Shown: positions 1 through 64,000 of the stretch, in pieces
Layout of the letters: the number at the start of each line of letters is the position of its first letter
Position numbering within the stretch: position 1 is the first letter of the stretch
Assembly: GCA_026134085.1 (NCBI GenBank)
Contig: JAOQIN010000002.1
Span: 73,390 to 137,389, forward strand
DNA from: Candidatus Methanoxibalbensis ujae
Lineage (GTDB): Archaea; Halobacteriota; Syntropharchaeia; Alkanophagales; Methanospirareceae
Direction of reading: 5' to 3'
DNA length: 64,000 bases
Position numbers and translations under genes: made by a program
The notes under the pieces: generated by a model
The model's input: the letters and a program-made list of their open reading frames with translations, nothing else
Databases searched by the model: none
Told to the model about the DNA's origin: nothing

Positions 1-82
1 CTGTGGAGAGGAATGCCTCCGTCCGATAAATCATGCATCCGTCATGTTATGTATGTATGTGCGGAGAGAGCAAATGCACAGA

Positions 83-92
83 TTTTATAAAA
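83..92 (+). promoter_or_regulatory. TATA-box-like element upstream of cdhC
   Basis: ttttataaaa lies about 35 nt upstream of the ATG at 127. The spacing fits an archaeal TATA box with a short leader. Sequence pattern only. Confidence 0.3.
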
Positions 93-126
93 TGACTCTC
101 ACAATATAAGCGGAGTGAACCGATCT

Positions 127-1710
127 ATGAGCAGCGGCGATTTTCCATTTGATATAAATCCAATGTATGAGGGGGAGCGGATACGCAGGGAACAGATGTT
201 CGTTGAGCTCGCAGGACCGCAGAAGCCTGGATTTGAGCTGGTGATATGTGAGGAAGACCCGGAGAATGTGAACGACGAGCATGTGACACTTATAGGTCCC
301 GATATAGATGAGATGGAGGAAGGTGGAGTATATGCATATGCGATGATATACAAAGTTTACGGGAAAGAGGTGGAGAAGGACCTTGAAGCTGTGCTTGAGC
401 GTCGCAACCATGAGTTTCAGTCATATATTCAGGGATACATGCATCTGAATCAGCGGTCTGAGATATGGATAAGAATAAGCAAGGACCTGATCAACAAAGG
501 ATTGCGATCATTGAAGCAGATTGCGAGTGCAACAATAATGCTGTATAAGTCGGAGTTGTCGTTTATTGAGAAAATGGAAGCTATCTACATCACCGATGAG
601 GAAGAGGTTCTCCGCCGGATGAAGGAAGCAGAAGCAATTTACAGAGCGAGGGACGAGAAGGCTCGTGGCTTGCATGATGAGGATGTTGAGGAGTTCTATC
701 AATGCACCCTCTGCCAGTCCTTCGCACCTACGAATGTCTGCGTTATCACGCCGGACAGGGTGGCTCTATGCGGTGCGATGACATGGTTTGATGCCCGTGC
801 ATCTGCGAGGATTGATCCTGAAGGTCCCAATGCTCCCATTCCGAAGGGTGAGTGCATAGACCCGATTGGCGGCGAATACACGGGAGTGAACGAGGCAGCC
901 GTTCGGCTATCAGGCGGAGCATACGATTCAATCAAGCTTCATTCGTTTTTTGAGAAGCCTCACACCTCCTGCGGTTGCTTTGAGGTCGCAGGCTTTTACA
1001 TTCCCGAAGTCGACGGCATCGGGTGGATTCACCGCGGTTCGCAGGTATCTGAGACCCCCATAGGTCTTCCTTTCTCAACGATTGCTGCATCAGTTGGCGG
1101 AGGTCGTCAGGTGGAGGGCTTTCTCGGCATAGGCATCCAATACTTTTACAGTGAGAAGTTCATCCAGGCGGATGGCGGTTGGAGAAGGGTTGTATGGATG
1201 GCTTCCGACCTGAAAGAGCGTGTAATTGATGCGATACCGGAGGAAATGCGCGATAAGATTGCAACTGAAAAAGATGCGAGAACGATAGAGGAGCTCAAGG
1301 AGTTCCTGCGGAAGGCTGACCATCCCGTCGTGAAAGGTGTTGTGAGACCTGTTGACGGCGTGAAGATAACAGAAGGGTGGGGTGGGGAAGAAGTGGCTGC
1401 TGAGGAAGCTGGCGAAATATTTGCTGCGGATGAGTCTCCAGCTCCTCAGCGCATAACAGCACCTCCCATAACAGCACCTCCTGCACCTCCAAGCGCACGA
1501 TCAGCCCCTCCATCCGCGGAAAATGTGCTGACGATACCCGCCTCACTCACAGTTGATCTGTCATCGCTGCTGTCTGTTCTGAATGCTCTCGCCGCAGCCA
1601 CTGGTGACATGACCGGGCAGAGCATAAAAATCACGCTGAAAAATGCTGAGATACGCATAGGCAAGATCGTGCTGCAGAAGCAGCAGGAGCGAGAAAACAG
1701 GCGTAAGTGA
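127..1710 (+). CDS. cdhC: acetyl-CoA decarbonylase/synthase complex subunit beta (CdhC)
   Basis: ORF 115..1710. The ATG at 127 gives [18 protein letters not shown], colinear with Methanosarcina CdhC as I recall it. Matches include [30 protein letters not shown] and the C-terminal [12 protein letters not shown] segment. A Pro/Ala-rich linker lies near the C-terminus. Confidence 0.95.
1453..1490. repeat. 15-nt tandem repeat (about 2.5 units) in the cdhC linker
   Basis: ataacagcacctccc / ataacagcacctcct / gcacctcc. Encodes [13 protein letters not shown], in frame. Confidence 0.85.
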
Positions 1711-3115: not shown

Positions 3116-3910
3116 TCAGTGCGAGAGTGACAATGCTGCACTCACAAACTTCCTCACCTTTTCCTCATCCTTCCAACCTGATGCGTTTTCAACACCACTT
3201 GACACATCAACCGCGAACGGACGCACACGCATTATCGCAAGACGCACATTCTCGGGGTTCAATCCACCGGCGAGGATAACAGGTTTCCCCAGTGATGAGA
3301 CCGTTCTCGCGGATATTTCCCAGTCATGCACAACGCCAGTGCCACCATGCGGAGATTGCTCTGATGAGATATGAGATGATCGGTGAGATGAGTGGTGAGA
3401 TGATCGGTGAGATGATAGATGAGCCTGTGCAGTCGTGCGGGAAGCAGTGCTCGCGGCAGTGTCAAGAAGTATTGCATCAACGAATTTTTCGTAGGAATTT
3501 GCATTTTGGATGATGCGTGCGATAACTGCATCTCTGGAAGAAGCGTGCAGCTGCGCCGGGATCCCTATTTTTTTTATGAGTTTCAGCGATGTCTTCTCTC
3601 TCAACCTCTTTACAATCTCAACACGCTCGTTTCCATGCAGTTGGATACAGTCCGCACCTATGCGCTCATAATCACGCACACGCTGATCTATTTCAGCATC
3701 AGATAAGCCGTCAAACATGACAACAACAACCTTCGTTATGAGCGGGGGGATTGCATTGAATATCTTTTCAGCATCTTCAACTGATATGAAACGCCTGGTC
3801 CCCTCCACCTGAATCACACCAATCGCATCCGCACCTGCTTCCACAGCAATAAATGCGTCCTCAACACGACGAATGCCGCATACCTTCACACGGATACGGC
3901 TGCCACGCAT
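3116..3910 (-). CDS. trpF: phosphoribosylanthranilate isomerase (TrpF) with a Ser/His-rich insertion
   Basis: RVKVCGI..AGADAIGV..LHG..LLDT..GGTG..W..ILAGGLNPENV is the PRAI pattern. A stretch of about 35 aa (..HLSSHRSSHHSSHRSSHISSE..) is inserted between LLDT and GGTG. Confidence 0.85.
   Translation of the reverse strand: MRGSRIRVKVCGIRRVEDAFIAVEAGADAIGVIQVEGTRRFISVEDAEKIFNAIPPLITKVVVVMFDGLSDAEIDQRVRDYERIGADCIQLHGNERVEIVKRLREKTSLKLIKKIGIPAQLHASSRDAVIARIIQNANSYEKFVDAILLDTAASTASRTTAQAHLSSHRSSHHSSHRSSHISSEQSPHGGTGVVHDWEISARTVSSLGKPVILAGGLNPENVRLAIMRVRPFAVDVSSGVENASGWKDEEKVRKFVSAALSLSH
3361..3423. repeat. 12-nt tandem repeat (about 5 units) inside trpF
   Basis: gagatgatcggt / gagatgagtggt / gagatgatcggt / gagatgatagat on the + strand. 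Read on the - strand it encodes SSHR/SSHH/SSHR/SSHI. Confidence 0.9.
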
Positions 3911-4008: not shown

Positions 4009-5030
4009 ATGATGGAAGCGGAGATAACAAAGACAGTCAAGTGTAAGCTCATGACAAAGCGAAAGCTTGAGCTACTTAAGAATACGACAACTTTCAACAC
4101 TACTTGAAGACTGGAGAGGATAGGGGAGTTTATTCTGCAACGAAACAGCAAGGGAAGCGAACATATCTGAAGATTGACCCCCGCAAGGAATATCCTCTCA
4201 AGGAAAGACCTGATGGATATCCGCAAAACCAATAACAAACTCGCCGGGTATCGGGCTCGCATTCCCATTTGTGGAGTCGGAGGTGGAGTTAAGGTTGCAC
4301 TTAAACATCAACCCTTCAGCTTCATGGGAGATTTGCTGTTCTAAGCTGATTGGAACGAGAGATGGCGAAATCCATCTTCATGTCGCAGTCAGGTCTTCAT
4401 GTCGTATCAGGTCTTCATGTCGTAGTCAAGAGCCGAAGAAGGAATACTCGTCCATCACAGCGATAGACGAAATGGGCAGGTGTGTCTGTGGCACCGCACC
4501 AGAGTTCTACGGCAAAAGGGTGAGCTTAAAAATATTTCTCAGGAGGAAGCTCGGAAGAGAGAAAAAGCTGAGAGCAATAAAAAAGATCGGGCATAATGAA
4601 GAATTGTCAATGATGAAACAAGATAGCGAAATAAATTGTTGAAGAAGCGGAGAAGCGCAATAATTGCATCGGTAACCTAAATAGTGTTAGAAACAATAAC
4701 AGTGGAAGAAAGGTGAACAATAAATCAATACAATGCCATTCCATAAATAATATCAAGTATAAAGAGAGTAATCATAGAGAAGTTCATACAACACATCAAG
4801 AATTGTGGCTACCATTAAGATGTGAACGGAGCCGAGAACAAATGAGCCATTGCTCATGGCAGGTGCTTTCGTTACCCCGCCAGAAGCGCAATGCACACCC
4901 CCCAAAATGCTTCCGGTGGAAGTCCTTTAGTCGGGGAGCCCGCCTCATGCGCGGCTGTATTATCCACAGCTCGGTTGAGTGCTGCACTGAGGTTGCGTAA
5001 AGAGCTGAAGCGATGCAGTGTGTCCATCCA
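4009..5030 (+). pseudogene. tnpB: decayed IS200/IS605-family tnpB (OrfB) transposase/RNA-guided nuclease gene
   Basis: Fragments lie in at least 4 frames: MEAEITKTVKCKL.., YSATKQQGKRTYLKIDPRKEYPL, AGYRARIPICGVGGGVKVALK, GEIHLHVAV, EKKLRAIKKIGHNE, VEEAEKRNN. Their order matches archaeal TnpB. No intact ORF longer than 123 aa, and no tnpA. Confidence 0.65.
4389..4424. repeat. perfect 18-nt x2 tandem duplication inside the tnpB remnant
   Basis: tcaggtcttcatgtcgta occurs twice, head to tail. Confidence 0.95.
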
Positions 5031-7156: not shown

Positions 7157-7954
7157 TTGGCTCAACATGCGCTACATCTGTGTCAAGCGGAGGAGGTGAA
7201 AGAGACGCAAATTACAGAAGAGCAAATTGCAGAAGAGCGACTGCGCAGGATTTGGAGAATTCTTGAGAGCGCATACGGACATAAGACATGCCACAGGAAA
7301 GACCCTGTTGAGACGCTCGTTCGCACAATTCTCTCACATAACACGAACGACAGGAACTGCGACGCTGCATTCAAAGATCTCGTTGAAAAGTTCAGAAGAT
7401 ATGAGGAGCTTCTCACAGCATCTGATGATGAGATAGCTCATGCAATAAGAAAAGCGGGATTGAGCCGTGTGAAGGCTAAAAGACTGAAAAATGCACTTTC
7501 CGCACTGTATTACGCATCAATTTGTTATCAGAAACATCAGCAGCATAAATGGCATAAACAGCATAAACAGCATAAGCATTCTGAAAAGCAGCCGGGGCGG
7601 AACACAGCGATAGACATGCGATTTCTGGATGAAATGAGTGTTGAGGAGGCGAGAGAATTTCTGATGAGCATTCCCGGCATCGGTCAGAAGACCGCATCCT
7701 GCATACTTTGCTTCTCTTTCGGAAAAGGAGCATTTCCAGTTGACACTCACATACAGCGCATATTCAGAAGAATGTTCAGCATAAATGAGGTGAATCGCAT
7801 TGCACATATTGTGGAAATGAGCATTCCTCCGGAAGAAATATGCGGATTTCACCTGAATCTCATAGAACACGGCAGAAAAATATGCAGAGCACGCAATCCC
7901 TTATGTGATAAATGCGCGTTGCGAGGAGAATGCGCGTTCGCTCATACCTCCTGA
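7157..7954 (+). CDS. nth: endonuclease III-like HhH-GPD DNA glycosylase (4Fe-4S)
   Basis: HhH motif LMSIPGIGQKTASCIL, then VDTH, then the C-terminal Cys cluster CRARNPLCDKCALRGEC. Start is uncertain: TTG at 7157, or in-frame GTG at 7196 preceded by ggagg. Contains a His/Gln/Lys-rich insertion. Confidence 0.85.
   Translation: MAQHALHLCQAEEVKETQITEEQIAEERLRRIWRILESAYGHKTCHRKDPVETLVRTILSHNTNDRNCDAAFKDLVEKFRRYEELLTASDDEIAHAIRKAGLSRVKAKRLKNALSALYYASICYQKHQQHKWHKQHKQHKHSEKQPGRNTAIDMRFLDEMSVEEAREFLMSIPGIGQKTASCILCFSFGKGAFPVDTHIQRIFRRMFSINEVNRIAHIVEMSIPPEEICGFHLNLIEHGRKICRARNPLCDKCALRGECAFAHTS
7543..7578. repeat. 9-nt tandem repeat (4 units) inside nth
   Basis: gcataaatg / gcataaaca / gcataaaca / gcataagca. 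Encodes the His/Lys/Gln-rich run (H)KWHKQHKQHKH, in frame. Confidence 0.9.
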
Positions 7955-9609: not shown

Positions 9610-9637
9610 ATATTTTTGTTTGCATATTTTTGTTTGC
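9610..9637. repeat. perfect 14-nt x2 tandem duplication (intergenic)
   Basis: atatttttgtttgc occurs twice, between the 112-aa gene and the PAS/STAS gene. Confidence 0.95.
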
Positions 9638-9662
9638 AGTTTGTGCTGGAAGTTCTATGCGA

Positions 9663-10159: not shown

Positions 10160-10222
10160 AGCGAGCATATAAGCGAGCATATAAAACAGATGCTGCGACA
10201 GCGAGAATAGACAGCGAGAATA
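10160..10222. repeat. two adjacent perfect tandem duplications (12-nt x2 and 13-nt x2)
   Basis: agcgagcatata x2 (10160-10183) and gacagcgagaata x2 (10197-10222), upstream of glyA. Confidence 0.95.
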
Positions 10223-10303: not shown

Positions 10304-11623
10304 ATGAGAGAACTGGAAGTGGAGATGAAGCGTGCGGTGGAGAGGGTGTTCTCAGCTGTTGAGAGACATCATGAGCTTTTTAAAAATGCACTGCCGATGA
10401 TAGCGAGCGAGAACATAACGAGTGTTGCTGTCAGGAACATGCTTATATCAGATTTCTCGCACAGATATGCTGAAGGAGATGTTGGAAGGAGATTTTATCA
10501 GGGATGTGCGTTCATTGATGAGGTTGAAGCGATTGCGATAGATCTTGCAAAGCGGCTTTTCAGCGCTGAACATGTGAATTTAAAGCCAACATCGGGCGTG
10601 AATGCGAACATAGCAGTAATACTTGCGCTGACAGATGTTGGAGACAGGATAATGGCGCTTTCAGTCCCTGATGGAGGGCATATAAGCCACTCAAAATTCT
10701 CAGCACCTCAGATAAGGGGACTTCATGTTGACAATCTGCCATTTGACTCAACGGAGATGAACATAGATGCTGCACGAATGCATGAGGATATAATTGAGAA
10801 GAAGCCGCGCATGATACTTCTCGGAGCTTCTCTTTTTCTTTTCCCCCATCCGGTGAGGGAAGCGGCAGAAGCGGCGAGGGAAGTTGGAGCGAGGGTTGTC
10901 TATGACGGCTCGCATGTCCTCGGACTTATTGCAGGTCGTCGTTTTCAGGATCCGCTGCGTGAAGGTGCTGATGTCATCGTGAGCAGCACGCACAAGACAT
11001 TTCCGGGTCCTCAGGGTGCGCTTATATTGTGTGGTGAGGATCTGAGAAGCAGAATAGACATGGCTGTTTTTCCGGGCACTGTGAGCAATCATCACCTGCA
11101 TCATGTCGCAGGCCTCGCAGTGGCTATCGCTGAGATGATGTGCTTCGGCGAGGCATACGCATCGCAGACAATAGCAAATGCAAAAGCGCTTGCAAGGCAC
11201 CTTCATGAAAACGGATTCAATGTCCTCTGCGCACACAAGGGGTTCACTGCCTCTCATCAGGTCGCAGTTGATGTCTCTGAATTGGGAGGGGGCTCCTATG
11301 TGGCAATGAAACTGGAAAAAGCAAACATAATAGTGAACAAGAACATGCTCCCCTCCGATAGAACGCCTGAAAATCCATCAGGCATAAGAATTGGCGTTCA
11401 GGAGCTCACACGCATAGGGATGAAAGAGCGTGAAATGGCTGAGATCGCAGCGATGATGCGAAGAGTAATTATTGATGAAGAAAACATAGATAAGGTGAAA
11501 AAAGATGTCTCCGCACTGAGAGAGGGATTCCAGCATGTCCATTTCTCATTTGACGCTGTTCAAAACGGCGTGAATGCATATGATTTCCCCGTGCATTTCA
11601 ACATTGATGCCTTTCAACATTGA
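10304..11623 (+). CDS. glyA: serine hydroxymethyltransferase (archaeal type)
   Basis: LPMIASENITS, YAEGDVGRRFYQGC, and SSTHKTFPGPQG (PLP lysine motif). Length is typical for SHMT. Confidence 0.93.
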   Translation: MRELEVEMKRAVERVFSAVERHHELFKNALPMIASENITSVAVRNMLISDFSHRYAEGDVGRRFYQGCAFIDEVEAIAIDLAKRLFSAEHVNLKPTSGVNANIAVILALTDVGDRIMALSVPDGGHISHSKFSAPQIRGLHVDNLPFDSTEMNIDAARMHEDIIEKKPRMILLGASLFLFPHPVREAAEAAREVGARVVYDGSHVLGLIAGRRFQDPLREGADVIVSSTHKTFPGPQGALILCGEDLRSRIDMAVFPGTVSNHHLHHVAGLAVAIAEMMCFGEAYASQTIANAKALARHLHENGFNVLCAHKGFTASHQVAVDVSELGGGSYVAMKLEKANIIVNKNMLPSDRTPENPSGIRIGVQELTRIGMKEREMAEIAAMMRRVIIDEENIDKVKKDVSALREGFQHVHFSFDAVQNGVNAYDFPVHFNIDAFQH

Positions 11624-11672
11624 TGCCCCCCTGATCCCACTTGATGTCATCTGCGACGACGCTGATGCTGCA

Positions 11673-12333: not shown

Positions 12334-12702
12334 ATGGCAGAGGAGATTCCACCACAGTTGAGGAATCAGCTTGCGCAGCTGCAACAGTTGCGCATGCAGC
12401 TTGAGACGGTGAGCAGGCAGAAATTGCAGGTGGAGGCTGTGCTGAGAGACACGGAGAGCGCACTTGAGGAGCTTGAGCACATTGATGACAACGCTGTCAT
12501 ATACCGTGGCGTCGGTGAGATTCTCGTGAGGACCTCTCGTGATAAAGTGAAGGAGGAGTTGAAAGAGAAAAAGGAGACATTTGACCTCAGATTGAAAACG
12601 CTTGAGCGTCAGGAAGAACGAATGCAGAAGCGATTCCAGCAGATTCAGCAGCAGATAAGAGAGGCGCTGGGAGGTGAGCAGGTATCTCCTGCTGGTGGTT
12701 GA
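12334..12702 (+). CDS. pfdB: prefoldin subunit beta
   Basis: PPQLRNQLAQLQQLRMQLE .. coiled coil - beta hairpin (AVIYRGVGEILV) - coiled coil. Size is typical. Confidence 0.88.
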   Translation: MAEEIPPQLRNQLAQLQQLRMQLETVSRQKLQVEAVLRDTESALEELEHIDDNAVIYRGVGEILVRTSRDKVKEELKEKKETFDLRLKTLERQEERMQKRFQQIQQQIREALGGEQVSPAGG

Positions 12703-12756
12703 TTTCAGCGTGATTATTTCAGCGTGATGGCGCGATGTCGTGTGAATGTCGTGTGA
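12702..12756. repeat. two tandem duplications starting at the pfdB stop codon
   Basis: atttcagcgtgat(t/g) x2 (12702-12729) and atgtcgtgtga x2 (12735-12756). Confidence 0.9.
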
Positions 12757-15104: not shown

Positions 15105-15123
15105 AACAAAAATGGATCATATT

Positions 15124-15151
15124 TATAAGTTGACGGTTATAAGTTGACGGT
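15124..15151. repeat. perfect 14-nt x2 tandem duplication in the lrp/pckG divergent intergenic region
   Basis: tataagttgacggt occurs twice, head to tail. Confidence 0.95.
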
Positions 15152-15193
15152 TGTTCATATGGACATGGATCTGTGTGGGGAGGAGAAGTGAGG

Positions 15194-17970: not shown

Positions 17971-18037
17971 TGCTCGGTGTTATTTTTTTCAATTTCTTTT
18001 TCTCTTTTCACTTTCTTTTTCTCTTTCTCTTATTGTT
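17971..18037. terminator. T/C-rich tract between convergent genes (candidate bidirectional terminator)
   Basis: ttatttttttcaatttctttttctcttttcactttctttttctctttctcttattgtttc. Oligo-T runs are the known archaeal termination signal. Confidence 0.3.
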
Positions 18038-20855: not shown

Positions 20856-20879
20856 TTACATCATTCATTACATCATTCA
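20856..20879. repeat. perfect 12-nt x2 tandem duplication
   Basis: ttacatcattca occurs twice. Confidence 0.95.
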
Positions 20880-27542: not shown

Positions 27543-27547
27543 AGAAA

Positions 27548-38326: not shown

Positions 38327-40320
<1,994 letters not shown>

Positions 40321-44065: not shown

Positions 44066-44094
44066 TAGCGGCGCAGAAGCGCATGATAGCGGCG
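44053..44094. repeat. perfect 21-nt x2 tandem duplication containing the hbd stop codon
   Basis: cagaagcgcatgatagcggcg occurs twice. The hbd TGA is at 44063-44065, inside unit 1. Confidence 0.95.
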
Positions 44095-44875: not shown

Positions 44876-44957
44876 GCTGACTACCACCTCACATCATCAC
44901 ACCATCACACCATCTCATCACACTCATTCTCAATGATTCCGCAAAGCGCTGCTTGAG

Positions 44958-46181
44958 GTGCGGGGGAGGATGGAGATAAGAAGCAAAGGAGACGGCGATC
45001 TGATTTATGTTGTATGCATTGTGCTTGTTGTCAAGATTGCGCTGCTCGCAGTATCTGTGTTGGGCAGCATGGTTTTAAACAACCGGATCAGTGACCTCAC
45101 CGTGCTGTGGAACAGATGGGATGCACCACATTACATAGATATCGCGAAATATGGTTATAACAACACAGGAGAGCATAGATATTTCATTGTTTTCCTGCCA
45201 TTTTATCCTTTTCTCATAAAACTTCTGTCTTTCATAATGGATTATGAATATGCTGCATTGCTCATATCCAATATATGCTCCGCAGCAGCGGCGATATATC
45301 TTTTCAGGATTGCAAGTCTTGATCTGTCTGAGCGATCAGCACTGAGAAGCGTCATATACTTCTCCACATTTCCGACAGCATACTTCATGATCGCAGGATA
45401 TACAGAGGGGCTCTTTCTGCTTCTCGCAATATCATGCATGTATTATGCAAGAACACACAGATGGTTTATGAGCGGATTCTCAGGAATGCTCGCCACTGCA
45501 ACACGCATAACAGGTCTCGCACTCATCCCCGCACTCATAGCCGAATTCATAGTTCAGAAGCACGAGCAGCTGGGACAGAAGAAATGTGGACATCAGCAAT
45601 CACACGCAAAGCAGCAATCACACGCAAAGCAGCAATCACATGCAAAGCAGCAATCACACGCAAAGAAAGCAGCGGAGAAAGAAACAGCAGGAGCAACAGC
45701 ATCTATCCTGATGACACCCGTGGGATTTCTCATTTATCTGATGCTCAATTATGTGGTGTTCGGTGATGCTCTTGCTTTCATGCACTTTCAGCGGGAACAC
45801 TGGTTCAAGCACCTCGCACCTCCGTGGACGGGTTTTGTGAACGCAGTTGGAGGCTTTTTCTGGCGCCCTCAATCTGAGATTGCTCTCGTATGCATTGCGG
45901 AAATTGTGTTCTGTGTGCTGGGAATCGCCTGCATAATATATTCATTCATCACATCACGCATTTCATACAGCATATATATGCTTTTCTCGTGGCTTGCATT
46001 CACTTCATCCCATTTCTGGCTCAGCATACCGAGATATACGCTGTCTCTTTTTCCCATTTTCATAATATTTGCATCAATAAGCGAGCGCAGTGATTTTCTG
46101 CATCATACAACAGTGATCATTTCCACAATATTTCTTTCATTCTTCACAGTGCTTTTCACGCAAGGTCTCTGGGCGTTTTGA
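44958..46181 (+). CDS. integral-membrane glycosyl/mannosyltransferase (PIG-V-like) with tandem-repeat insertion
   Basis: Multi-TM protein. WNRWDAPHYIDIAKYGY resembles the PIG-V/GT76 signature as I recall it. The loop insertion is QQSHAK x4. Confidence 0.6.
   Translation: MRGRMEIRSKGDGDLIYVVCIVLVVKIALLAVSVLGSMVLNNRISDLTVLWNRWDAPHYIDIAKYGYNNTGEHRYFIVFLPFYPFLIKLLSFIMDYEYAALLISNICSAAAAIYLFRIASLDLSERSALRSVIYFSTFPTAYFMIAGYTEGLFLLLAISCMYYARTHRWFMSGFSGMLATATRITGLALIPALIAEFIVQKHEQLGQKKCGHQQSHAKQQSHAKQQSHAKQQSHAKKAAEKETAGATASILMTPVGFLIYLMLNYVVFGDALAFMHFQREHWFKHLAPPWTGFVNAVGGFFWRPQSEIALVCIAEIVFCVLGIACIIYSFITSRISYSIYMLFSWLAFTSSHFWLSIPRYTLSLFPIFIIFASISERSDFLHHTTVIISTIFLSFFTVLFTQGLWAF
45594..45665. repeat. 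18-nt x4 tandem repeat inside the glycosyltransferase gene
   Basis: cagcaatcacacgcaaag x4 with a single mismatch in unit 3 (45641). Encodes QQSHAK x4, in frame. Confidence 0.95.
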
Positions 46182-46255: not shown

Positions 46256-48787
46256 TCATACATGAACGACGACCTCCACATCACTTATTTTGAATTCAAC
46301 ACGCTCGCTGTCTGCTTTTGCTTCTGCTTTTGCTGCGTGCCTGTCGCTGCTGCGAAGCATCACGGGGGAAGCAGTTGCATTTTTGAGGTCTTCGGTGTCT
46401 ATGGGTTCCGGTGAGAATATTTCTATTTTGCGAAGCGGTTTGTTGAGAGGTATTCTGCGCTCTGCCTTCAATCTTCTGACTGTGCGCACGATTTCAGCGA
46501 TAATGTCTCCCTCGTGCACTTCTTCAGGTTTCACATGAACATGAATTTCGGGCCATCTCTCCTGATGGACGCTCGGCTTCGCTGTTTTAACCTTTCTGAC
46601 GACACGCTGATACATCTCCTCTGCGAAGAAAGGCATGAAAGGAGCCAGAAGTATTGACAGCGTTTTCATTGTTGTGAAAAGAGCGAACCTCGCTGATTCC
46701 CTTCCGGAATCTCCTGACACTGAATCACCGTATAGCCTTGCTTTCGCGATCTCTATGTAGTCATCTGCGAGAATATCCCATGCGAACGCCTTTATGCGTT
46801 TCAGTGCCTCATCAAACTTGAATTTCTCCATAGCATCCGTGACTTCATCAACGAGCTCCTTCAATTTCGCGAGAAGCCATTTGTCAATCACATTCATCGC
46901 AGCGCAGTTTTCATCAGGAGGCGTGTAATCGGCGAGGTGTATCATTGAGAACCTGAGTATGCTCCACATTTTCTGCAGGAATTTTGAAGCTGCAACTATG
47001 TCTTTCCAGCGGAACTGGACATCGGAGCCTACAGCACCGCCTGTTGCAGCCCACTGTCTGAACGCATCTGCGCCGTGCTTGCTCACGACCTCATCAGGCG
47101 ATATAATGTTGTTACGTGATTTGCTCATCTTGAATCCGTCTTCGCCAAGGACCATACCGTTTATCAGTATCATGCGCCACGGTATTTCTCCCGTGAGTGC
47201 GAGCGTTCTGAGTATTGTGTAGAAGGCCCATGTCCTTATGATGTCGTGTCCCTGAGGTCGCAGCTCAACCGGCTTGTAATTGTTATTATTGTTATTATCA
47301 TTATCATTAAAGTTCCATCCGGCGACCCAAAGTGCGCTCAGTGACGAGTCCATCCATGTGTCGAGCACATCCTCCTCTCCGATGAAATCTCTGCTCCCGC
47401 ATTTCTCGCATGGGCTCTTTGGCTTCTCCTCAGATGCGTCAACTGGCAGCTCATCCTCAGATGGGAGCTTCACAGCGCCGCATTGCTTGCAATACCACAC
47501 GGGAATGGGCACAGCAAATATCCGCTGGCGTGAGATGCACCAGTCCCATTCCATGGAGTCCACCCAGTTCTCAAGGCGAAGTCTGAAGTGCTCGGGATGC
47601 CATCTTATCCTGCGAGCTGCTTCTTTGACCTCCTTCTTGGGAACGCGGATGAACCACTGCTTCGCCGAAATTATTTCAATGGGCGTCTTGCACCGCCAGC
47701 ACACTCCCACACTCTGCTTTATACGCTCCCTCCTCAGAAGAAGTCCTCTTCCCTCAAGATCCTCCACTATGCGATTTCTGCATTCTTCCACACTCATACC
47801 CTCGTATTTTCCTGCAGTGCCCGTCATTCTGCCTCTACCATCTATGGATACACGCAGCGGCAGTCTGTGCTCCTTCCACCAGCGCACATCCTGACGGTCG
47901 CCGAATGTGCATATCATGACAACGCCAGTTCCGAATGAGGGGTCGACATTCTCATCCTCAAACACGCGCACATGATGCCCGAATATGGGCACCTCAAGCA
48001 TTTCTCCTCTCAGATGGGAGTATCGCTCGTCGGAGGGATTGACTGCAACCGCAACACAACTCGCAAGAAGCTCAGGGCGCGTGGTGGCGATCACAACATC
48101 ATCGGATTCAGATGAAGAAGTCGCTGAGTCAGCTTGCACACGCTTGAACAATATGTAGTTGAGATATGATTCACGCTCCTCATACTCAACCTCGGCAAAT
48201 GCGATCGCAGTTTCGCAGCGGGGACACCAGTTCACCGGATGCTCCGCACGATATATCCAGCCATCCCTGAACATGCGAATGAATGAGCGCTGTGTGAATT
48301 TTTTGTATGAGTCGTCCATTGTCACGAACTCACGACTCCAATCAATTGAAAATCCCAATCTCCGCATCATCTCCCTCATCTGCTTTATGTTGCGCATCGT
48401 CAGCTCCTCGCACATCCTCCTGAACTCCTGCTTGCTCACCTCCCTCTTTGAGATGCGGTGCGTCTCCTCAACCTTAACTTCAGTCGGCAGACCGTGGCAG
48501 TCCCAGCCCTGCGGAAACATCACTTCATATCCCCTCATCCGCTTGTATCTCGCGATGAAGTCAATGTAACACCAGTTGAGCGCATTTCCTATGTGAAAAT
48601 CTCCTGTCGGATAAGGCGGTGGCGTGTCTATGATATAGGGTTCCTTCTCGCCAGATGCTACAGAAGCATCCTCATAATAATACAGCGAATCATCCCAATA
48701 CGACAGCCACCTCCTCTCAACTTCCTCAGGATTGTATCGCTTACTCATCTTCGCCAACTCCGCGTTCATCATGATCCCCCTCCTCAT
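46256..48787 (-). CDS. valS: valyl-tRNA synthetase
   Basis: [18 protein letters not shown] .. [17 protein letters not shown] (N-terminus like archaeal ValRS), and KMSKS motif FKMSKSRNN. 843 aa. Contains an Asn/Asp run. Confidence 0.88.
47281..47310. repeat. short tandem repeats (9-nt x2 plus 6-nt x2) inside valS
   Basis: tgttattat x2 then cattat/cattaa. On the - strand this encodes [10 protein letters not shown]. Confidence 0.85.
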
Positions 48788-49091
48788 CTTCTCTTATCCT
48801 CTTTTACATCTTTCCGTTCCAACACCACTCACTCCATTCTTTTATCGTTTTCACCCCGCAGCTTCATCCTCCGTTCTGACATCATCAGGCTTCATCCTCT
48901 GTTCTGAGATCATCGGGACATTATCAGAACATCATCGGGACATCATCAGAACACCATCAGAACCTCATCAGAACACTGCCGCTGCCACACGATAACGCCC
49001 GAGCTGCCTCATCATGCCCTTGAGAAGTTGAGTAAATAAAGAATTTAAGTAAATAAAAAAGCAAAAAAGTTGAAAGATTTGACAGTTCAAA

Positions 49092-55102: not shown

Positions 55103-55124
55103 AAGTCAGTTATAAGTCAGTTAT
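55103..55124. repeat. perfect 11-nt x2 tandem duplication just upstream of the regulator gene
   Basis: aagtcagttat occurs twice. Confidence 0.95.
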
Positions 55125-55285
55125 GAATATCTCTATCAATTGATGAATTGATGAAGCTGACGCTTGCTCACTCGGACAGTAGCAGCAAAAACGCACCGCA
55201 TCATCCGATTTCATTCCGATTTTGGGATTTTATGCTCAGTGCGGTTGGCTGTCCTGCATGCCCGGTTCGCTGAAATCATCAACGC

Positions 55286-56293: not shown

Positions 56294-56410
56294 GCTCTCT
56301 CCCTCATCCAGAATTGATGATTTATCTTTCCTCATCTCACGATCACACCACATCACACTCACACCACATCACACGATCGCATATCACGATCACACCACAC
56401 GACACAAGCC

Positions 56411-57211: not shown

Positions 57212-57964
57212 ATCCCATCCCTCATAATTGCACGATGCAAATCATAACCTCTCACGGCAAGCCGGCTCCAGTGAGGGAACAGCCAAGCTCTGTCATACGG
57301 AATGCAAAAAGTTATGAAGTGGAAAAATAAAAACAGGGCTCTTCCCCTTCAAAGGAGGGGAGGAGGTTTTGAGGGAGGGAGTTTGGGGTAACAGGAGAAG
57401 GAGATACGGAAGCGGATGCGTCTTTCTTCCGGAAATGATCGCTTCTGAGGAAAAAGAGGTGGAGAGAAGGGATCAAAACTGCGGTTCCTTAAATGTCTTG
57501 GCTTAAGGAATCATGAAAATGTCTGGAGTGCGGCAGACAATGGGGTGCGGAATGGGGTGCGGCAGACAAAGACCTCATTTGAGCATCATCAGCTTCAGGG
57601 AGATTTTCCTCATTTTGAAGGAAGGCAAAATCGGCACTGAATCCGGATTATGATTCGGTGCTTTTGCCCATGAAGTGAAACAGCTTCTATGTGAAGATCA
57701 CGAAGTATTTGGTATAGAATTGGATGAGGTATCAGAATATAATAGGAATAAGGGAGGGAAAGGCGAGGAGAGGAGCATCACGATGGGGAGATCAGAAGTG
57801 ATGGTTGAGATAAAGGTGAAGCTGATCGGCGGGGAAGTGATAGTCAGCACAGGGAATATAAAAGCTTGAGTGTTAAGGTAATGAGGAGGCGTAATGGCTG
57901 GTTGAGATTACTGCTGAACGAGAAATCCCGTTTGATCTTCCTCCGATAATCCACGAACATGAAC

Positions 57965-58945: not shown

Positions 58946-59096
58946 TCAACCACCTCAAAGGAAAAAGATGTATCAAATAAAAAATGTTTTGCATTTCTCT
59001 CGCGGTTGACATGCGGTTGACATATAGGAAATGTTGAAACGGAGATGATGAGCAAAGCCCTTCATCCGGCATCTGAGAGCACAGCCTTCGCGAGCG

Positions 59097-59171
59097 CTGG
59101 TTCTCGGCTCTGATGGCTGGTTCTCGGCTCTGATGATTTGATGGATGCGGCTCTGATGATTTGATGGATGA
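59097..59171. repeat. two overlapping tandem duplications (20-nt x2 and 23-nt x2)
   Basis: ctggttctcggctctgatg(g/a) x2 (59097-59136) and ggctctgatgatttgatggatg(c/a) x2 (59126-59171). Confidence 0.9.
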
Positions 59172-59186
59172 TTTGATACAGATAAT

Positions 59187-59995: not shown

Positions 59996-60214
59996 ACGCC
60001 AACCTCCCCTCGCCACATCCTCCAGCCATCCTCCAGCGCCTGCCACGCGCTGCCACAGACACACGCTGCCACAACAATGCCACAGGCAGCACATCATGAA
60101 TTTCATGAATTGATTGCGATCTGATTGCGATCCGATTTCCTATTTGGAGCAAGAGGCGCAGGAAAAAAAAGAACGATCCTCTCCGGCGGGCTTCCTCAAC
60201 TTTTTCAACTTTTT

Positions 60215-60970
60215 TCAACTTTTTTCAATGATTTTATCAAGCACATAAATTTCGCTGCCGTCTTTTGAATATATTCTCCTCACCTGTATGCGCTTCTTGT
60301 TCGGATCATCTGTATCTTTCACCTCAATCAGATTAAAAGAGGGAAGGATGCGATATTTCAGACGATTTGTGCAGGCAGTTCCGGCATTCAGGACGATCAT
60401 GTTGTTCAGCACCCACACCCATGACACATGCTTGTGCCCGCACAACACCAGATTGACATTACAGTCGTTCAAAAGTTTGAGGACATCTCCGGCATCGGTG
60501 AGTATGTTTCTTTCCCTTCCCGTGTAAGGAACGGGGAGCAGATGATGATGCAGTGCGAATATTTTGAGGTCGTCGCCGGCATTTTGAAGGCTTTTCCTTA
60601 TCCAATCGTATTTATCCCTGCCTATGTGACCCTCGTCAAGGTCTGGCTGCGTTGAATCAACTGCGACAACTGTAACTCCCTTATGATTGAGCACACTTGA
60701 GCGCGCGCCGAATATGTCCTCAAAGTACAGATAGCCGACATTGCGCGCATCATGATTGCCCGGAACAACAACACGTCGCTCGCATTCAAACCGCTCAATG
60801 AACGCCTTCGCGTCCTCAAACTCATATAAATATCCGCTGTCCGTGAGGTCACCTGTCAAAACGAGTATTTCAGGTTTCAACGAATTCACACGCTCTATCA
60901 CACGCTCCATCAGCTCACGAATGAAATGCCGCTCAGCAACATGTATGTCCGAAATGTGCACAATCCTCAT
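60215..60970 (-). CDS. calcineurin-like metallophosphoesterase
   Basis: MRIVHISDIHV, TGDLTD, PGNHD, ALHHHL, CGHKH. Confidence 0.85.
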   Translation of the reverse strand: MRIVHISDIHVAERHFIRELMERVIERVNSLKPEILVLTGDLTDSGYLYEFEDAKAFIERFECERRVVVPGNHDARNVGYLYFEDIFGARSSVLNHKGVTVVAVDSTQPDLDEGHIGRDKYDWIRKSLQNAGDDLKIFALHHHLLPVPYTGRERNILTDAGDVLKLLNDCNVNLVLCGHKHVSWVWVLNNMIVLNAGTACTNRLKYRILPSFNLIEVKDTDDPNKKRIQVRRIYSKDGSEIYVLDKIIEKS

Positions 60971-61141: not shown

Positions 61142-61173
61142 GAGCAGATAAAAAGAAGAGCGGATAAAAAGAA
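61142..61173. repeat. 16-nt x2 tandem duplication (1 mismatch) downstream of hdrA
   Basis: gagcagataaaaagaa / gagcggataaaaagaa. Confidence 0.85.
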
Positions 61174-61183
61174 GGAGAAGGGG

Positions 61184-63280
61184 TTATGAGGTATATATCT
61201 CTATCTGTGAGTATATATGTTTATCTCTGAAGTGTCTCACAGATGCTGCGCCTGATGGACACATTCCCACGCAGCAACCGCATCCTTTGCATATGGCTTC
61301 GTTGACGCGTGTGATTTTTCTGTGCTCATCATATTCTATTGCGCCGAATGGGCATACTCTCTCGCAGCAGCGGCATCCGACGCACATATCCTCGCTGACT
61401 TCTGAAGTTGCGGGCTCTATTTCAGCGACACCTTTCACGAGATATGCGAGCGCAGCCGAAGCAGCCGCACGACCTTGCGCAACTGTGTCTGTTATGTCTT
61501 TCGGTCCCTGACAGCATCCAGCGACGAATATGCCATCTATCGCTGTGTCAACGGGTCTGAGCTTTGGATGCGCCTCAAGCAGGAATCCATCAGCTGATTT
61601 TGAGAGTTTGAGCATTCCTATCACATCTTCAGCCGCGTCACTGGGTCTCAGGCCAACTCCGAGGACAACGAGATCTGCCTCTATCTCAAATGTCTCAGCA
61701 AGCATCGTGTCCTCAAACCTGACAACAACCCTCTCACTTCCCGGCTTCTGATATATCTCCCCCGGTATGCCTCGCCGATATACCACGCCCTCTTTCATCA
61801 CTTCATCCCAGAACTCCTCAAATCCCTTTCCAAAAGCACGGACATCCTGATAGAGCACCGTGACATTCGCATCCGGGATCTGCTCCTTCACGAAATGTGC
61901 CTGTTTGCATAAATACATGCAGCAGACACGACTGCAATAGGGATATCCTGTCTGCTTGTTGCGTGAACCTACACAGCTTATGAAAACTATATCCTTGGGC
62001 TCTTTACCATTTATAACTATTTTTCCACCTGTTGGGCCTGATGCGCTGCTCAATCTCTCAAACTCAAGACCCGTGATTATGTTGGGATATTCACCATAAT
62101 GATACTCGGGCAGCAGACGGGGATCTATGATGTCATATCCCGTTGCAACGATTATCGTGCCCACTTTGAACGATATTTCCTGCTCCTTCTGCGAGAAATC
62201 AATCGCATCTTCAGGACATGCGCTCATGCACGGCGTCTTCGCCTTTCCTTCAAGGACATCCTCAAGAGATGCTTCACATTTTCCTTTGAGAAGTGCGCAG
62301 TTCTCCTCATCCACAACATAAACAGGCGGAACAGCGAAATGGAATGGCAGATATATCGCCTTGCGATTGCTCAGTTTTTCGTCATATTCGTTCGGAACTT
62401 CAACAGGGCATACTTTCTCGCATTCACCACAACCTGTGCATTTTCGCTCATCAACATAACGCGGCTTCTTCTTCGCTTTGACCTCATAGTTTCCGATGAA
62501 TCCTCCTATGTCCACGAGTTCGGTGTTCGTTAGCAATACGACATTCGGATGTGCTCCCACCTCTATCATACGAGGCGCCAGAAATGTGGAAACGCTCTTC
62601 ATTATCGGAAATGTCTTGCTGAGCTGCGCTGCATGACCTCCTATGGACGGCTTCTTCTCAACAAGATAAACCTTGAATCCCGCATCCGCGATGTCAAGAG
62701 CAGATTGAATGCCTGCTACACCCCCTCCTATGACAAGCGCAGCCGGCTCAACACTCACAGATTTCTCCTCAAGCGCCTCATTGAGCGACACCCTCGCAAC
62801 AGCAGCCTTGACTATCTCCTTTGCCTTCTCAGTCGCTTCTTCCCTGTAATCAACATGCGGCCACGAGCAGTGCTCTCTTATGTTGGCTTGCTCGAAGAAA
62901 TATGGGTTCAGGTTGTTGTCAGCGCAGACCTTGCGGAAAGTCAGCTCGTGCATCCTCGGAGAACATGCTGCAACAATCACACGATTTATGCGACCTGCCT
63001 TAAGGTCTTCCGCAATGAGCGCCTGTCCCGGATCAGAGCACATGTAAATGTAGTTTCTCGCAAGAACCACATTAGGAAGCGTTTTCGCATAATCCCTGAC
63101 AGCTTCCACATCCACAGATAGCGCAATGTTTATACCGCAATGACACACATACACGCCTATACGGGGCTCATCAGCCTCTGTGGGTTCCTCCTCTGATTCT
63201 TCAGATTCTCCTCTCGCTTCTTCCTCAGATGCTTTCGATGCTTTCACACCCTCTTCCTCTTCCTTCATCTCTTCCCCCAC
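61184..63280 (-). CDS. hdrA: heterodisulfide reductase subunit A (HdrA) with acidic N-terminal extension
   Basis: VYVCHCG, FAD motif VIGGGVAGI, CTGCGECEKVCP, ISCVGSRN..YCSRVCCMY, and the C-terminal CVGCRCCERVCP / CKGCGCCVGMCP. Confidence 0.92.
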   Translation of the reverse strand: MGEEMKEEEEGVKASKASEEEARGESEESEEEPTEADEPRIGVYVCHCGINIALSVDVEAVRDYAKTLPNVVLARNYIYMCSDPGQALIAEDLKAGRINRVIVAACSPRMHELTFRKVCADNNLNPYFFEQANIREHCSWPHVDYREEATEKAKEIVKAAVARVSLNEALEEKSVSVEPAALVIGGGVAGIQSALDIADAGFKVYLVEKKPSIGGHAAQLSKTFPIMKSVSTFLAPRMIEVGAHPNVVLLTNTELVDIGGFIGNYEVKAKKKPRYVDERKCTGCGECEKVCPVEVPNEYDEKLSNRKAIYLPFHFAVPPVYVVDEENCALLKGKCEASLEDVLEGKAKTPCMSACPEDAIDFSQKEQEISFKVGTIIVATGYDIIDPRLLPEYHYGEYPNIITGLEFERLSSASGPTGGKIVINGKEPKDIVFISCVGSRNKQTGYPYCSRVCCMYLCKQAHFVKEQIPDANVTVLYQDVRAFGKGFEEFWDEVMKEGVVYRRGIPGEIYQKPGSERVVVRFEDTMLAETFEIEADLVVLGVGLRPSDAAEDVIGMLKLSKSADGFLLEAHPKLRPVDTAIDGIFVAGCCQGPKDITDTVAQGRAAASAALAYLVKGVAEIEPATSEVSEDMCVGCRCCERVCPFGAIEYDEHRKITRVNEAICKGCGCCVGMCPSGAASVRHFRDKHIYSQIEIYTS
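61636..61776. repeat. 141-nt block identical to 63623-63763 (hdrA paralog identity island)
   Basis: Base-by-base comparison shows identity: cgtcactgggtctcaggcc ... ggtatgcctcgcc. A second island, 61913-61982 versus 63900-63969, has 1 mismatch. Confidence 0.95.
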
Positions 63281-63299
63281 TCACCTCCATCATTTTTCA

Positions 63300-64000
63300 T
63301 CATTTTTTGCTGCTTCCACCTGCAGCTGCGATCTCCTTGACGGCTGTGCTGAGGGATTTCGACTCCACGAGCGGTGCCTCATCAATCTCAACAACACGCG
63401 GTTTGACCTTCACCTTCTTCCTTGCAAGATATACGAGCGCTGCTGATGCTGCTGCCTTCCCCTGCTGAACGCTGTCAGGAATGTCCTTTGGACCCTGCGC
63501 GCATCCCGCGATGAAAACTCCGGGAATCTCAGTTTCAATAGGCATCGTCTTCGGATGCTTCTCTGCGAAGAACTCATCTGAAGATGTCTTGAGGTTGAGA
63601 ACTTCCAATATCTGTCTTGTCCCGTCACTGGGTCTCAGGCCAACTCCGAGGACAACGAGATCTGCCTCTATCTCAAATGTCTCAGCAAGCATCGTGTCCT
63701 CAAACCTGACAACAACCCTCTCACTTCCCGGCTTCTGATATATCTCCCCCGGTATGCCTCGCCTGTATGAGATGCCCTCCGACTGAACCCTGTCATAGAA
63801 TTCCTCGTATCCCTTTCCAAAAGCACGGACATCCTGATAGAGAATTGTTATGTTTACACCATGCGTTTTCTCATGAAGCAGATGAGCATGCTTCGCAAGA
63901 TACATGCAGCAGACACGACTGCAATAGGGATATCCCGTCTGCTTGTTGCGTGAACCTACACAGCTTATAAACACAGCATCCTTGGGCTCTTTACCATTTA
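63300..64000 (-). CDS. HdrA-like flavoprotein paralog (5'-truncated by the window edge; lacks the C-terminal ferredoxin domain)
   Basis: The reading frame continues to the window end (..NGKEPKDAVFISCVGSRNKQTGYPYCSRVCCMY..). It ends in an Ala/Lys tail instead of the 2x CxxCxxCxxxCP of the neighbouring hdrA. Confidence 0.85.
   Translation of the reverse strand, partial: NGKEPKDAVFISCVGSRNKQTGYPYCSRVCCMYLAKHAHLLHEKTHGVNITILYQDVRAFGKGYEEFYDRVQSEGISYRRGIPGEIYQKPGSERVVVRFEDTMLAETFEIEADLVVLGVGLRPSDGTRQILEVLNLKTSSDEFFAEKHPKTMPIETEIPGVFIAGCAQGPKDIPDSVQQGKAAASAALVYLARKKVKVKPRVVEIDEAPLVESKSLSTAVKEIAAAGGSSKK
63623..63763. repeat. 141-nt block identical to 61636-61776
   Basis: See the partner entry. The flanks drop to about 55-60 percent amino-acid identity by eye. 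Confidence 0.95.

Follow-up and report, generated by a model that had tools for sequence, protein, structure and literature searches.

A high load of short tandem duplications, mostly lacking flanking microhomology, in chromosomal DNA of the methane-oxidizing archaeon Candidatus Methanoxibalbensis ujae

Introduction

Tandem repeats originate from short tandem duplications. Exact duplications of this type are known from end joining with fill-in, for example, from bacterial Ku/LigD fill-in of 5' overhangs, from paired nicks in plants, and as target-site duplications. Microhomology-mediated tandem duplication (MTD) is found in all domains of life and was reported to be the main duplication route across life, where microhomology arms are missing from only about 25 to 30% of variable duplications (preprint 10.64898/2026.02.28.708716). 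In the thermophilic archaeon Sulfolobus acidocaldarius, tandem duplications and deletions account for about 10 to 15% of the spontaneous mutations in pyrE (PMC7785828). Borg repeats, which are perfect arrays of at least three units and at least 50 nucleotides (nt), are carried by Methanoperedens extrachromosomal elements and hardly occur in the host chromosomes (PMC9879509). Here, we describe a dense load of short, mostly two-copy tandem duplications in a 64,000-nt stretch of DNA from Candidatus Methanoxibalbensis ujae (contig JAOQIN010000002.1 of assembly GCA_026134085.1, positions 73,390 to 137,389), which in its full length is called the window below.

M. ujae is a thermophilic, methane-oxidizing archaeon of the anaerobic methanotrophic (ANME) group ANME-1c. 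Its genome measures about 1.8 Mb, and growth at 70°C or above has been predicted or demonstrated (PMC9894754, PMC9539880). It has been grown in enrichment culture at 70°C (PMC9539880). Tandem repeats are not mentioned in these two papers, and our literature searches found no earlier description of such a repeat load in ANME-1. A study of structural variation in ANME-1 dropped variants of 50 bp or less (PMC13385816) and would therefore have missed the duplications described here. In the literature searched, there was also no report of a genome-wide standing duplication load like that of M. ujae; the S. acidocaldarius data are laboratory mutation spectra, whereas in M. ujae we see a standing load in a genome sequence.

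Results

Short back-to-back duplications of 8 to 28 bases are tens of times commoner in the window than in ordinary prokaryotic DNA. An exact scan found 59 perfect tandem duplications with units of at least 7 nt, and Tandem Repeats Finder (TRF) gave 148 rows at scores of at least 30. The repeats are present throughout all parts of the window (Table 1). A preliminary description, made by reading the sequence, had listed 25 sites. All 25 are tandem duplications with the unit lengths given there and with coordinates correct to within a few bases. TRF and the exact scan recover 24 of them, while the remaining one (38327 to 38362; 18 nt, 16 of 18 positions identical) falls below the TRF score cutoff and is visible in the sequence. 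About one-quarter of the listed sites are imperfect or have more than two units (3363 to 3423, 7541 to 7575, 11981 to 12014, 29494 to 29580, 33934 to 33980, 45594 to 45665, and 61142 to 61174).

The excess was measured against two controls. In 30 windows produced by local dinucleotide shuffling, perfect duplications with units of at least 9, 11, and 14 nt numbered 0.43, 0.07, and 0, respectively, compared to 40, 27, and 14 in the real window. The second control was a baseline of 80 metagenomic gyrB neighborhoods (967 kb) obtained from a metagenome scan with a GyrB alignment, in which no match exceeded 60% identity. After low-complexity filtering, the density of perfect duplications with units of at least 11 nt was 0.39/kb in the window and about 0.005/kb in the baseline, in which the top single locus reached 0.10/kb. 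When imperfect copies were allowed (TRF score of at least 40, period of at least 8, nonredundant loci), the densities were 1.0/kb and 0.18/kb, respectively, and the window was the densest among all loci examined. The excess begins at units of 8 nt, extends over 8 to 23 nt (up to 28 nt when imperfect copies are counted), and disappears above 30 nt, while units of 7 nt or less are at the baseline level. The earlier impression of a density far above that of ordinary DNA therefore holds against both the shuffled sequence and the prokaryotic baseline.

Most of the duplications are shared by independently assembled strains. The short-read metagenome-assembled genome (MAG) GCA_025966575.1, with contigs L002 (within JAPDIC010000041.1) and L089, matches 30.8 kb of the window at 99.8% identity, and the same duplications recur in it. 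Three assemblies from other projects and assemblers (L090, L091, and L092), which differ by about 2% single nucleotide polymorphisms (SNPs), have most of the duplications in common. Repeats are a known source of assembly errors, and the short-read MAG contigs do end beside them: L089 ends at window positions 12053 and 20887, the latter 7 nt beyond the duplication at 20856 to 20880, and JAPDIC010000041.1 ends at about 27725 and 57850, all beside tandem-repeat clusters, which suggests that tandem repeats fragment ANME-1c assemblies. The chance that the duplications themselves are assembly or sequencing artifacts is nevertheless negligible, since most of them are identical in at least five assemblies from different projects and assemblers, and since the frame rule in genes described below, the straddling of stop codons, the varying degrees of decay among copies, and SNPs that lie within a copy (such as that at 41123 in L002) are beyond any assembler.

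The same comparison revealed rapid turnover. The 99.8% identical strain differs from the window by 63 SNPs over the 30.8 kb shared, together with 5 indels of at least 6 nt, each of which is a gain or loss of tandem units. The window is longer by 6 nt at 18018, by 6 nt at 29396, and by 19 nt at 40860, and L002 is longer by 13 nt at 42528 and by 6 nt at 47310, within the ValRS gene. Compared with the strains at about 2% divergence over the shared region from 37.7 to 57.8 kb, 6 of 12 perfect duplications differ. The 13-nt duplication at 41110, the 16-nt duplication at 56343, and the 9-nt duplication at 47279 are single copy elsewhere, and the 18-nt array at 45594 has four units in the window and three elsewhere. 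The other strains have private duplications of their own (+16 nt at 44911, +11 nt at 48871 in L092, +12 nt at 55135, and +9 nt at 56613). Segments found in both one-copy and two-copy states are thus those at 41110 (13 nt), 56343 (16 nt), 47279 (9 nt), 42528 (13 nt; L002), and 48871 (11 nt; L092). Indels unrelated to duplication were also seen in comparison with L090, at 52356 (87 nt), 57497 (55 nt), and 57376 (24 nt), and the spacer at 57.3 to 57.8 kb aligns poorly between strains.

Unit gain and loss separating near-identical strains bears out the proposal in the preliminary description that an active, lineage-specific process is at work. Simple arithmetic starts from two de novo events seen over 30.8 kb at 0.2% divergence and takes the mean time before a 28-nt pair acquires its first substitution as about 1/28 per site; the estimated steady state is then about 1 perfect duplication per kb, of the same order as observed. 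A different explanation would be that the input is not elevated and that duplications arising at the usual rate persist by drift in a slow-growing, syntrophic thermophile with small populations. The coding density of the window, about 80% by our own gene calls and low for a reduced thermophile genome of 1.8 Mb (PMC9894754), fits weak streamlining, and many copies have decayed to 74 to 95% identity. We consider this explanation improbable. About one duplication-type indel per 13 SNPs at 99.8% identity, together with private duplications in every strain, means a high current birth rate and not just long survival. In addition, 24 of 64 loci are still perfect, and one-half of the perfect duplications have changed at a divergence of about 2%, which amounts to fast loss.

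The anatomy of the repeats is simple. Among the 64 nonredundant TRF loci, 51 have about two units, 8 have about three, and 5 have about four, with periods of 8 to 28 nt; 24 loci are perfect, 22 have 90 to 99% identity, and the remainder are older. Every unit is a distinct sequence of local origin. We took the matching run beyond exactly two units (k) as the footprint of a microhomology arm. In 37 perfect duplications, k was 0 in 22, 1 in 7, 2 in 3, and at least 4 in 5, where the proportions expected without an arm are 56% for 0, 28% for 1, 10% for 2, and about 2% for 4 or more. The five strain-specific exact two-copy duplications had k values of 1, 0, 0, 2, and 0. The baseline contains 12 duplications of at least 10 nt, which is too few for a useful microhomology contrast with the window. 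No junction or cut-site motif and no base preference were found at the duplication borders, and the hairpin potential of reconstructed single-copy sites did not differ from that of matched controls (P = 0.62).

These numbers bear on classical replication slippage or MTD, which could simply be commoner in this lineage and would act by reannealing at an upstream direct repeat or by misligation of an Okazaki flap. MTD is the reported dominant route across life (preprint 10.64898/2026.02.28.708716), and like the events in M. ujae, it produces de novo and reversible changes from one to two copies of short single-copy segments and seeds later arrays. Unit changes at existing arrays, such as 6-nt units gained or lost one at a time and three versus four units of 18 nt, are typical slippage products, and the 5 of 37 perfect duplications with at least four extra matching bases would also suit this route. 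However, slippage, Okazaki-flap misligation, and joining of the microhomology-mediated end-joining type all pair a few bases and so leave an arm, and the arm is not seen here. A displaced end must pair at least somewhat, but flanking homology is zero in 59% of the perfect duplications (56% expected) and in three of the five strain-specific ones, which is the chance level, and an association with hairpins is absent. Slippage or MTD as the principal source is, therefore, rather unlikely in our assessment. The preliminary description had named slippage and a dedicated mechanism side by side, and it is the slippage half of that proposal that has become weaker.

The position of the duplications reflects selection. 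Genes were called with a simple codon-score caller, and the calls between 28 and 50 kb were checked and corrected against the gene calls of L002. With the corrected gene map, 10 of 11 perfect genic duplications have a unit that is a multiple of 3, and the sole out-of-frame case lies 19 nt from an uncertain start codon, whereas perfect intergenic units are distributed 8/4/9 over the three phases. The suggestion that selection keeps genic repeats in frame was therefore correct. Repeats make up 10.8% of the intergenic and 1.7% of the genic bases. Between five and seven duplications run across a stop codon (for example, at 11592, 44053, and 38327), where any unit length is tolerated because the protein is left unchanged. 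Divergent, convergent, and tandem spacers have similar repeat densities (2.3 to 3.3/kb), which speaks against a preference for promoters or terminators. The clustering at promoters and stop codons that had been noted is mostly what selection would leave. Sense-strand A makes up 41.6% of genic repeats against a background of 28.4%, and A makes up 31.9% of intergenic repeats against 28.6%; the genic bias is expected if selection favors hydrophilic insertions. Nested or adjacent duplications (59096/59125/59155, 57524 to 57569, 60094/60111, 38289 to 38362, and the GyrB loop) are repeated rounds at tolerant or fragile spots.

Selected functional elements, be they duplicated motifs of promoters or terminators, regulatory RNAs, or hypervariable protein loops of an adaptive, contingency type, would account for the promoter-like sequence in some units (such as TTATAA at 15123), for the hypervariable Asn/Asp-rich loop of ValRS, and for the higher repeat density of short gene-adjoining spacers than of long spacers. 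This possibility is very remote, because the units are all different and without a common motif, occur equally in 5'-5', 3'-3', and tandem spacers and in housekeeping genes instead of surface or phase-variable genes, and are not conserved even among strains. Variable-number tandem repeats and contingency loci share with M. ujae the copy number polymorphism among strains and the in-frame genic units, but they are multicopy and sit in surface, virulence, or phase-variable genes, whereas the M. ujae repeats are mostly two-copy repeats of unique sequence spread over housekeeping genes and all spacers. Contingency loci were ruled out on the ground that 51 of 64 loci have about two copies and that the hosts are gyrB, the ValRS, S4, and ThiC genes, cdhC, and every spacer type. 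A CRISPR array was ruled out because the copies abut directly and the unit differs at every locus. Transposon footprints or target-site duplications were ruled out by the 8- to 28-nt spread of unit lengths: a transposase or restriction enzyme has a fixed stagger, and there is no mobile element between the copies. No transposase or integrase domain was found among the window proteins scanned with Pfam.

In-frame duplications have inserted sequence into essential proteins. GyrB has a 12-residue and a 10-residue repeat next to each other in a surface loop whose length varies, and both are absent from all 10 aligned homologs. Among 13 ValRS variants with at least 99% identity, length differences occur only at two repeat sites, and the Asn/Asp-rich loop has at least seven length alleles among proteins that are at least 99% identical. 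This loop and the AKAE-AK repeat of ValRS are absent from the nearest genera. As the GyrB and ValRS repeats are missing from other genera, they are derived insertions in tolerant surface regions. The GyrB of Candidatus Methanospirare jalkutatii (P0001) has a Ser/Ala-rich repeat insertion of its own at alignment columns 597 to 620 (SAASSASVASSASSAS) and a Gly/Asn-rich N-terminal extension, both at sites different from those of the M. ujae insertions, which suggests that repeat-driven GyrB insertions arose independently in the sister genus. The TFB open reading frame (ORF; 24828 to 25946, minus strand) encodes an N-terminal extension of about 85 to 90 residues before the zinc ribbon, with the Pfam match beginning at residue 92. 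Three tandem repeats (25735, 25767, and 25897) lie in this extension. There are two explanations: duplications built it up, or translation really starts further downstream.

The preliminary description had compared these repeats with those of Borgs. There is a resemblance in features: in both systems, unique local sequence is copied perfectly and head to tail, genic units are multiples of three and give amino acid repeats, unit numbers vary within populations, repeats terminate contigs, genic repeats are A rich, and the setting is methane-oxidizing archaea. The Borg definition itself is a different matter, as the exact scan of the 64 kb found no perfect region of at least three units and at least 50 nt, the nearest being 45594 to 45665 (four units of 18 nt, 96%). 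Borgs are linear extrachromosomal elements of giant size, whereas almost all loci in M. ujae are two-unit repeats with a total length of 16 to 60 nt on a chromosome. In Borgs, the A bias is stronger in intergenic repeats, and those of M. ujae are barely A enriched. Borg repeats have flanking partial repeats (seeds), whereas in M. ujae the extra match is at most 2 nt in 32 of 37 duplications, at the chance level. A dedicated Borg-repeat process acting on a host chromosome would fit the perfect, unique, local copies, the in-frame genic units, the variation within populations, and the A-rich genic repeats (PMC9879509). With 80% of the loci at two units, flanking partial repeats mostly missing, and chromosomal DNA of an ANME-1c host, we give such a process a slim chance only.

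Both the host and the chromosomal nature of the DNA are clear. The ValRS of the window belongs to a 90% cluster in which the members that carry a name are M. ujae, as seen by protein search, and its GyrB is 72 to 76% identical to that of M. jalkutatii and 66 to 70% identical to those of other ANME-1, so that a relationship to Methanoperedens, the host of Borgs, was not borne out. The window is housekeeping chromosome of a methane-metabolizing archaeon, as had been stated before. Pfam scans found the CO dehydrogenase/acetyl coenzyme A (acetyl-CoA) synthase subunits CdhC and CdhD; PAS histidine kinases; SHMT, RtcB, GTP-dependent PEPCK, a SepCysS-like enzyme, TFB, class V FBPase, and deoxyhypusine synthase; ThiC, ribosomal proteins S13, S4, and S11, RpoD, GyrB, and ValRS; and an Fpo/Mrp-type antiporter subunit, formylmethanofuran:H4MPT formyltransferase, and an HdrA-like protein.

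We compared the density of perfect duplications with units of at least 11 nt among related archaea. It was 0.32 to 0.39/kb in M. ujae (the window and L002), 0.14/kb in M. jalkutatii (L083), 0, 0.046, and 0.065/kb in three other ANME-1, and 0 in thermophilic Candidatus Alkanophaga (L088). The density in M. ujae thus exceeds that of all five relative loci, a comparison proposed in the preliminary description, and indicates a trait strongest in ANME-1c. Since Alkanophaga is thermophilic and has none, thermophily alone is insufficient.

Table 1. Tandem duplication sites in the window, with their units and contexts (n x, number of units)
Position	Strand	Repeat	Context and strain variation
1452..1481		15 nt x2.0, perfect	In frame, 3' part of cdhC; partial diverged third copy to 1490
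3363..3423		12/24-nt array, 2.5 to 4 units, 83-87%	In frame, PRA isomerase gene
4375..4428		18 nt x2.9, perfect core 4389-4424	Long spacer or possible small ORF
7541..7575		9 nt x3.9, perfect core 7552-7575	In frame, HhH-GPD glycosylase gene
9610..9638		14 nt x2.1, perfect	Intergenic
10160..10222		Perfect pair: 12 nt x2.1 (10160-10184), 13 nt x2.0 (10197-10222)	Upstream of SHMT
11592..11627		16 nt x2.2, perfect core 11596-11627	Across SHMT stop codon
11981..12026		8-nt arrays: GATGCTGA x4.2, GAGAGAGG x2	Intergenic
12702..12756		14 nt x1.9 and 11 nt x2.0, perfect	Prefoldin/RtcB spacer
15123..15152		14 nt x2.1, perfect; unit contains TTATAA	About 35 nt upstream of PEPCK
17986..18026		19 nt x2.2 (95%)	TTTCTC unit polymorphic among strains; window +6 nt at 18018
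20856..20880		12 nt x2.1, perfect	Intergenic; L089 contig stops 7 nt beyond
25735..25784		18 nt x2.1 (80%) and 9 nt x2.0 (perfect)	TFB N-terminal extension
28089..28122		15 nt x2.3, perfect	Upstream of FBPase
29387..29594		T-rich tract, then purine-rich 9/18/27-nt array	FBPase/deoxyhypusine synthase spacer; tract length polymorphic
30536..30553		9 nt x2, perfect	In frame, final ThiC codons
31830..32011		13 nt x2 (92%) and perfect 17 nt x2.0 (31978-32011)	ThiC/CDP-alcohol transferase divergent spacer
33934..33980		24 nt x2 (95%)	In frame, 3' end of ribosomal protein S4 gene
35077..35175		18 nt x2 (94%) and 19- to 20-nt x3 array	Upstream of S13, adjoining intron-containing tRNA
35322..35346		10 nt x2.5, perfect	Intergenic
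36275..36320		23 nt x2 (91%)	Intergenic
38289..38362		Nested: 18 nt x2.2; perfect 12 nt x2.2 (38307-38332); 18 nt x2 (38327-38362)	gyrB 3' end; last one spans the stop codon
39782..39841	-	18 nt x2.06, perfect (12 residues); 15 nt x2, 93% (10 residues)	Two adjoining in-frame duplications in gyrB
40362..40386		10 nt x2.5	gyrB start/GtrA stop interval
40860..40991		19-nt imperfect duplication; CATGT/11-nt array	Duplication in window, not in L002; array polymorphic in other strains
41110..41135		13 nt x2.0, perfect, without microhomology	Single copy in L090, L091, and L092
42515..42540		ACTTATTTGAGCA	Single copy in window; 13 nt x2 in 99.8% identical L002
43136..43172		GAT/GATGATG array	Gene junction; 7-nt unit polymorphic
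44053..44094		21 nt x2.0, perfect	Duplicates 3' end and stop codon of 3-hydroxyacyl-CoA dehydrogenase gene
44885..44914		8-nt array x3.9	+16 nt in other strains
45594..45693	+	18 nt x4.0 (96%), then 16 nt x2	In frame, membrane glycosyltransferase-like gene; three units in other strains
46311..46334	-	12 nt x2, perfect	ValRS C-terminal part (AKAE AK...); 6-nt unit polymorphic across 13 strain variants
47279..47309	-	9 nt x2.2 and ATCATT units	Asn/Asp-rich loop of ValRS
48861..49061		28 nt x1.9, 22 nt x3.0, 17 nt x2.3	Upstream of ValRS
55103..55155		11 nt x2.0 and 8 nt x2.25, perfect	Another strain +12 nt at 55135
56333..56406		26-nt array with perfect 16 nt x2.0 (56343-56374)	DUF362 gene start; single copy in L090
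56607..56637		9 nt x3.4	In frame, phosphodiesterase-family gene; L090 +9 nt
57524..57569		Nested 17-nt and 12-nt duplications (perfect 12 nt x2, 57539-57562)	
59002..59023		11 nt x2.0, perfect	Intergenic
59096..59177		Three overlapping perfect duplications: 20 nt x2, 23 nt x2, 12 nt x1.9	Successive rounds at one spot
60016..60137		11 nt x2 (60016), 9 nt x2 (60094), 11 nt x2.5 (60111)	Around AGOG start
60196..60228		9/10-nt x3.4	Gene 3' end
61142..61230		16 nt x2.1 (94%), 20 nt x2 (85%)	3' end of HdrA-like gene
63228..63307		9 nt x2 and 10 nt x2	9-nt repeat in frame at HdrA-like N terminus; 10-nt repeat at gene junction

Several other features of the window were recorded. Unannotated spacers of 0.8 to 1.5 kb lie at 4108 to 5136, 20535 to 22448, and 36211 to 37732; searches with Rfam and ARAGORN and for repeats in the long spacers gave one tRNA only and no CRISPR. 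The tRNA gene (100 nt; 35177 to 35276, minus strand) apparently contains an intron, scored 49.5 bits with Rfam, was missed by ARAGORN, and adjoins the 19- to 20-nt repeat array at 35108 to 35175. The region of about 1.3 kb at 36400 to 37730 has no convincing ORF or Rfam match, is hypervariable among strains, and has few tandem repeats. SNPs are clustered there at 37006 to 37032 even in comparison with the 99.8% identical strain, and the alignment to the strains at about 2% divergence, which have a 108-nt insertion at 37718, is poor and rich in indels. T-rich or A-rich tracts of 50 to 60 nt are found in spacers at 29387 to 29446, 57966 to 58020, and 59193 to 59248, the first of which is T rich and differs in length among near-identical strains. 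Nick-forming or base excision enzymes are encoded at 7196 to 7954 (HhH-GPD glycosylase, whose gene bears its own in-frame 9-nt repeat), 24237 to 24806 (endonuclease dU), and 59249 to 60046 (AGOG 8-oxoG glycosylase/lyase), and a calcineurin-like phosphoesterase is encoded at 60215 to 60970.

Discussion

The kind of event seen here is already known and the type of element is not new; the repeats are most aptly seen as a duplication signature that is specific to a lineage and found in an ANME-1c chromosome. Very probably, they reflect an ongoing duplication bias that is independent of microhomology and filtered by selection, and they are a mutational signature rather than a set of functional elements. 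An adjacent second copy of a random local segment of about 8 to 28 bp is inserted anywhere, without a motif, hairpin, or flanking microhomology. Out-of-frame duplications in genes are lost, and in-frame ones are kept in loops and termini, as in GyrB, ValRS, S4, and ThiC, while spacers and stop codon crossings keep any unit length. Copies then decay by point mutation or collapse, leading to a steady state of about 0.4 to 0.6 perfect and about 1 recognizable duplication per kb, and arrays that reach three or more units alter their length in the usual way.

How the duplications are initiated can be proposed only tentatively. A repair-associated route of fill-in and blunt joining at a staggered break would yield exact, arm-free duplications most simply and is the candidate that we favor, though with reservation. 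Nearby nicks on opposite strands may separate at 70°C or above into a staggered break, and if the overhangs were filled in and the blunt ends joined, exactly the overhang would be duplicated and the duplicated length would equal the stagger. Opposed nicks up to about 25 to 30 bp apart would separate at such temperatures, which fits the upper size limit. End-joining fill-in duplications and those of M. ujae have in common that they are exact, arm free, and motif free. Polymerase template switching independent of homology is an alternative that we rank behind fill-in and regard as doubtful. The HhH-GPD, endonuclease dU, and AGOG enzymes of the window are common in archaea, and they are context and not evidence for the fill-in route.

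A part played by mismatch repair was also considered; it is no more than a lead and is not relied on. MutS/L does not normally act on loops of 8 to 28 nt. In M. jalkutatii (L083, 7369 to 14779), the gene order is GDPD-MutL-GtrA-GyrB-GyrA, and in the window (38356 to 41186), GtrA-GyrB is retained with MutL and GyrA not adjacent. A MutL search gave no M. ujae-like ortholog among the best 120 matches listed, the 79% match (L093) being a Methanospirare relative.

Several points weigh against a uniform, microhomology-independent duplication bias as the full explanation. At least four extra matching bases in 5 of 37 perfect duplications show that a slippage or microhomology component exists, and missing microhomology, while it speaks against classical slippage, names no enzyme. 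Long spacers have 4 repeats in 4.2 kb, compared to 37 in 8.6 kb of short spacers, a deficit that a purely uniform input does not predict unless the long spacers hide constrained genes. The lower size limit of 8 nt is a weak point, as the background may mask a small excess at 7 nt or less. The sample is 64 kb, about 3.5% of the genome of about 1.8 Mb, plus overlapping strain contigs, so that generality over the genome is an extrapolation, and with relatives represented by five loci of 15 to 22 kb each, their ranking is indicative only.

The main interest of the finding is mechanistic, because the duplications are arm free, arise at a high rate, and occur in an organism that can be grown in enrichment. 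Frequent duplications without arms would be a natural counterexample to the near-universal microhomology origin that recent work argues for and would point to a second route of formation, and cultivation at 70°C (PMC9539880) makes new duplications directly countable. The finding also places Borg repeats beside a chromosomal phenomenon in another methane-oxidizing lineage. In practical terms, the repeats probably break short-read contigs of ANME-1c MAGs, and they create protein length differences among otherwise identical strains, which clustering and pangenome tools will misread. For evolution, the interest is that essential proteins (GyrB, ValRS, and S4) and spacers gain and vary sequence in real time. 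As a speculative and rather improbable extension, ANME-1c, chiefly M. ujae, may have a host-encoded, homology-independent end-joining/fill-in route or a template-switching polymerase that writes arm-free duplications of 8 to 28 bp chromosome-wide, at about one per dozen substitutions; such a system would be a counterpart, possibly a precursor stage, of the Borg process and a major source of loops in essential proteins and of spacer DNA.

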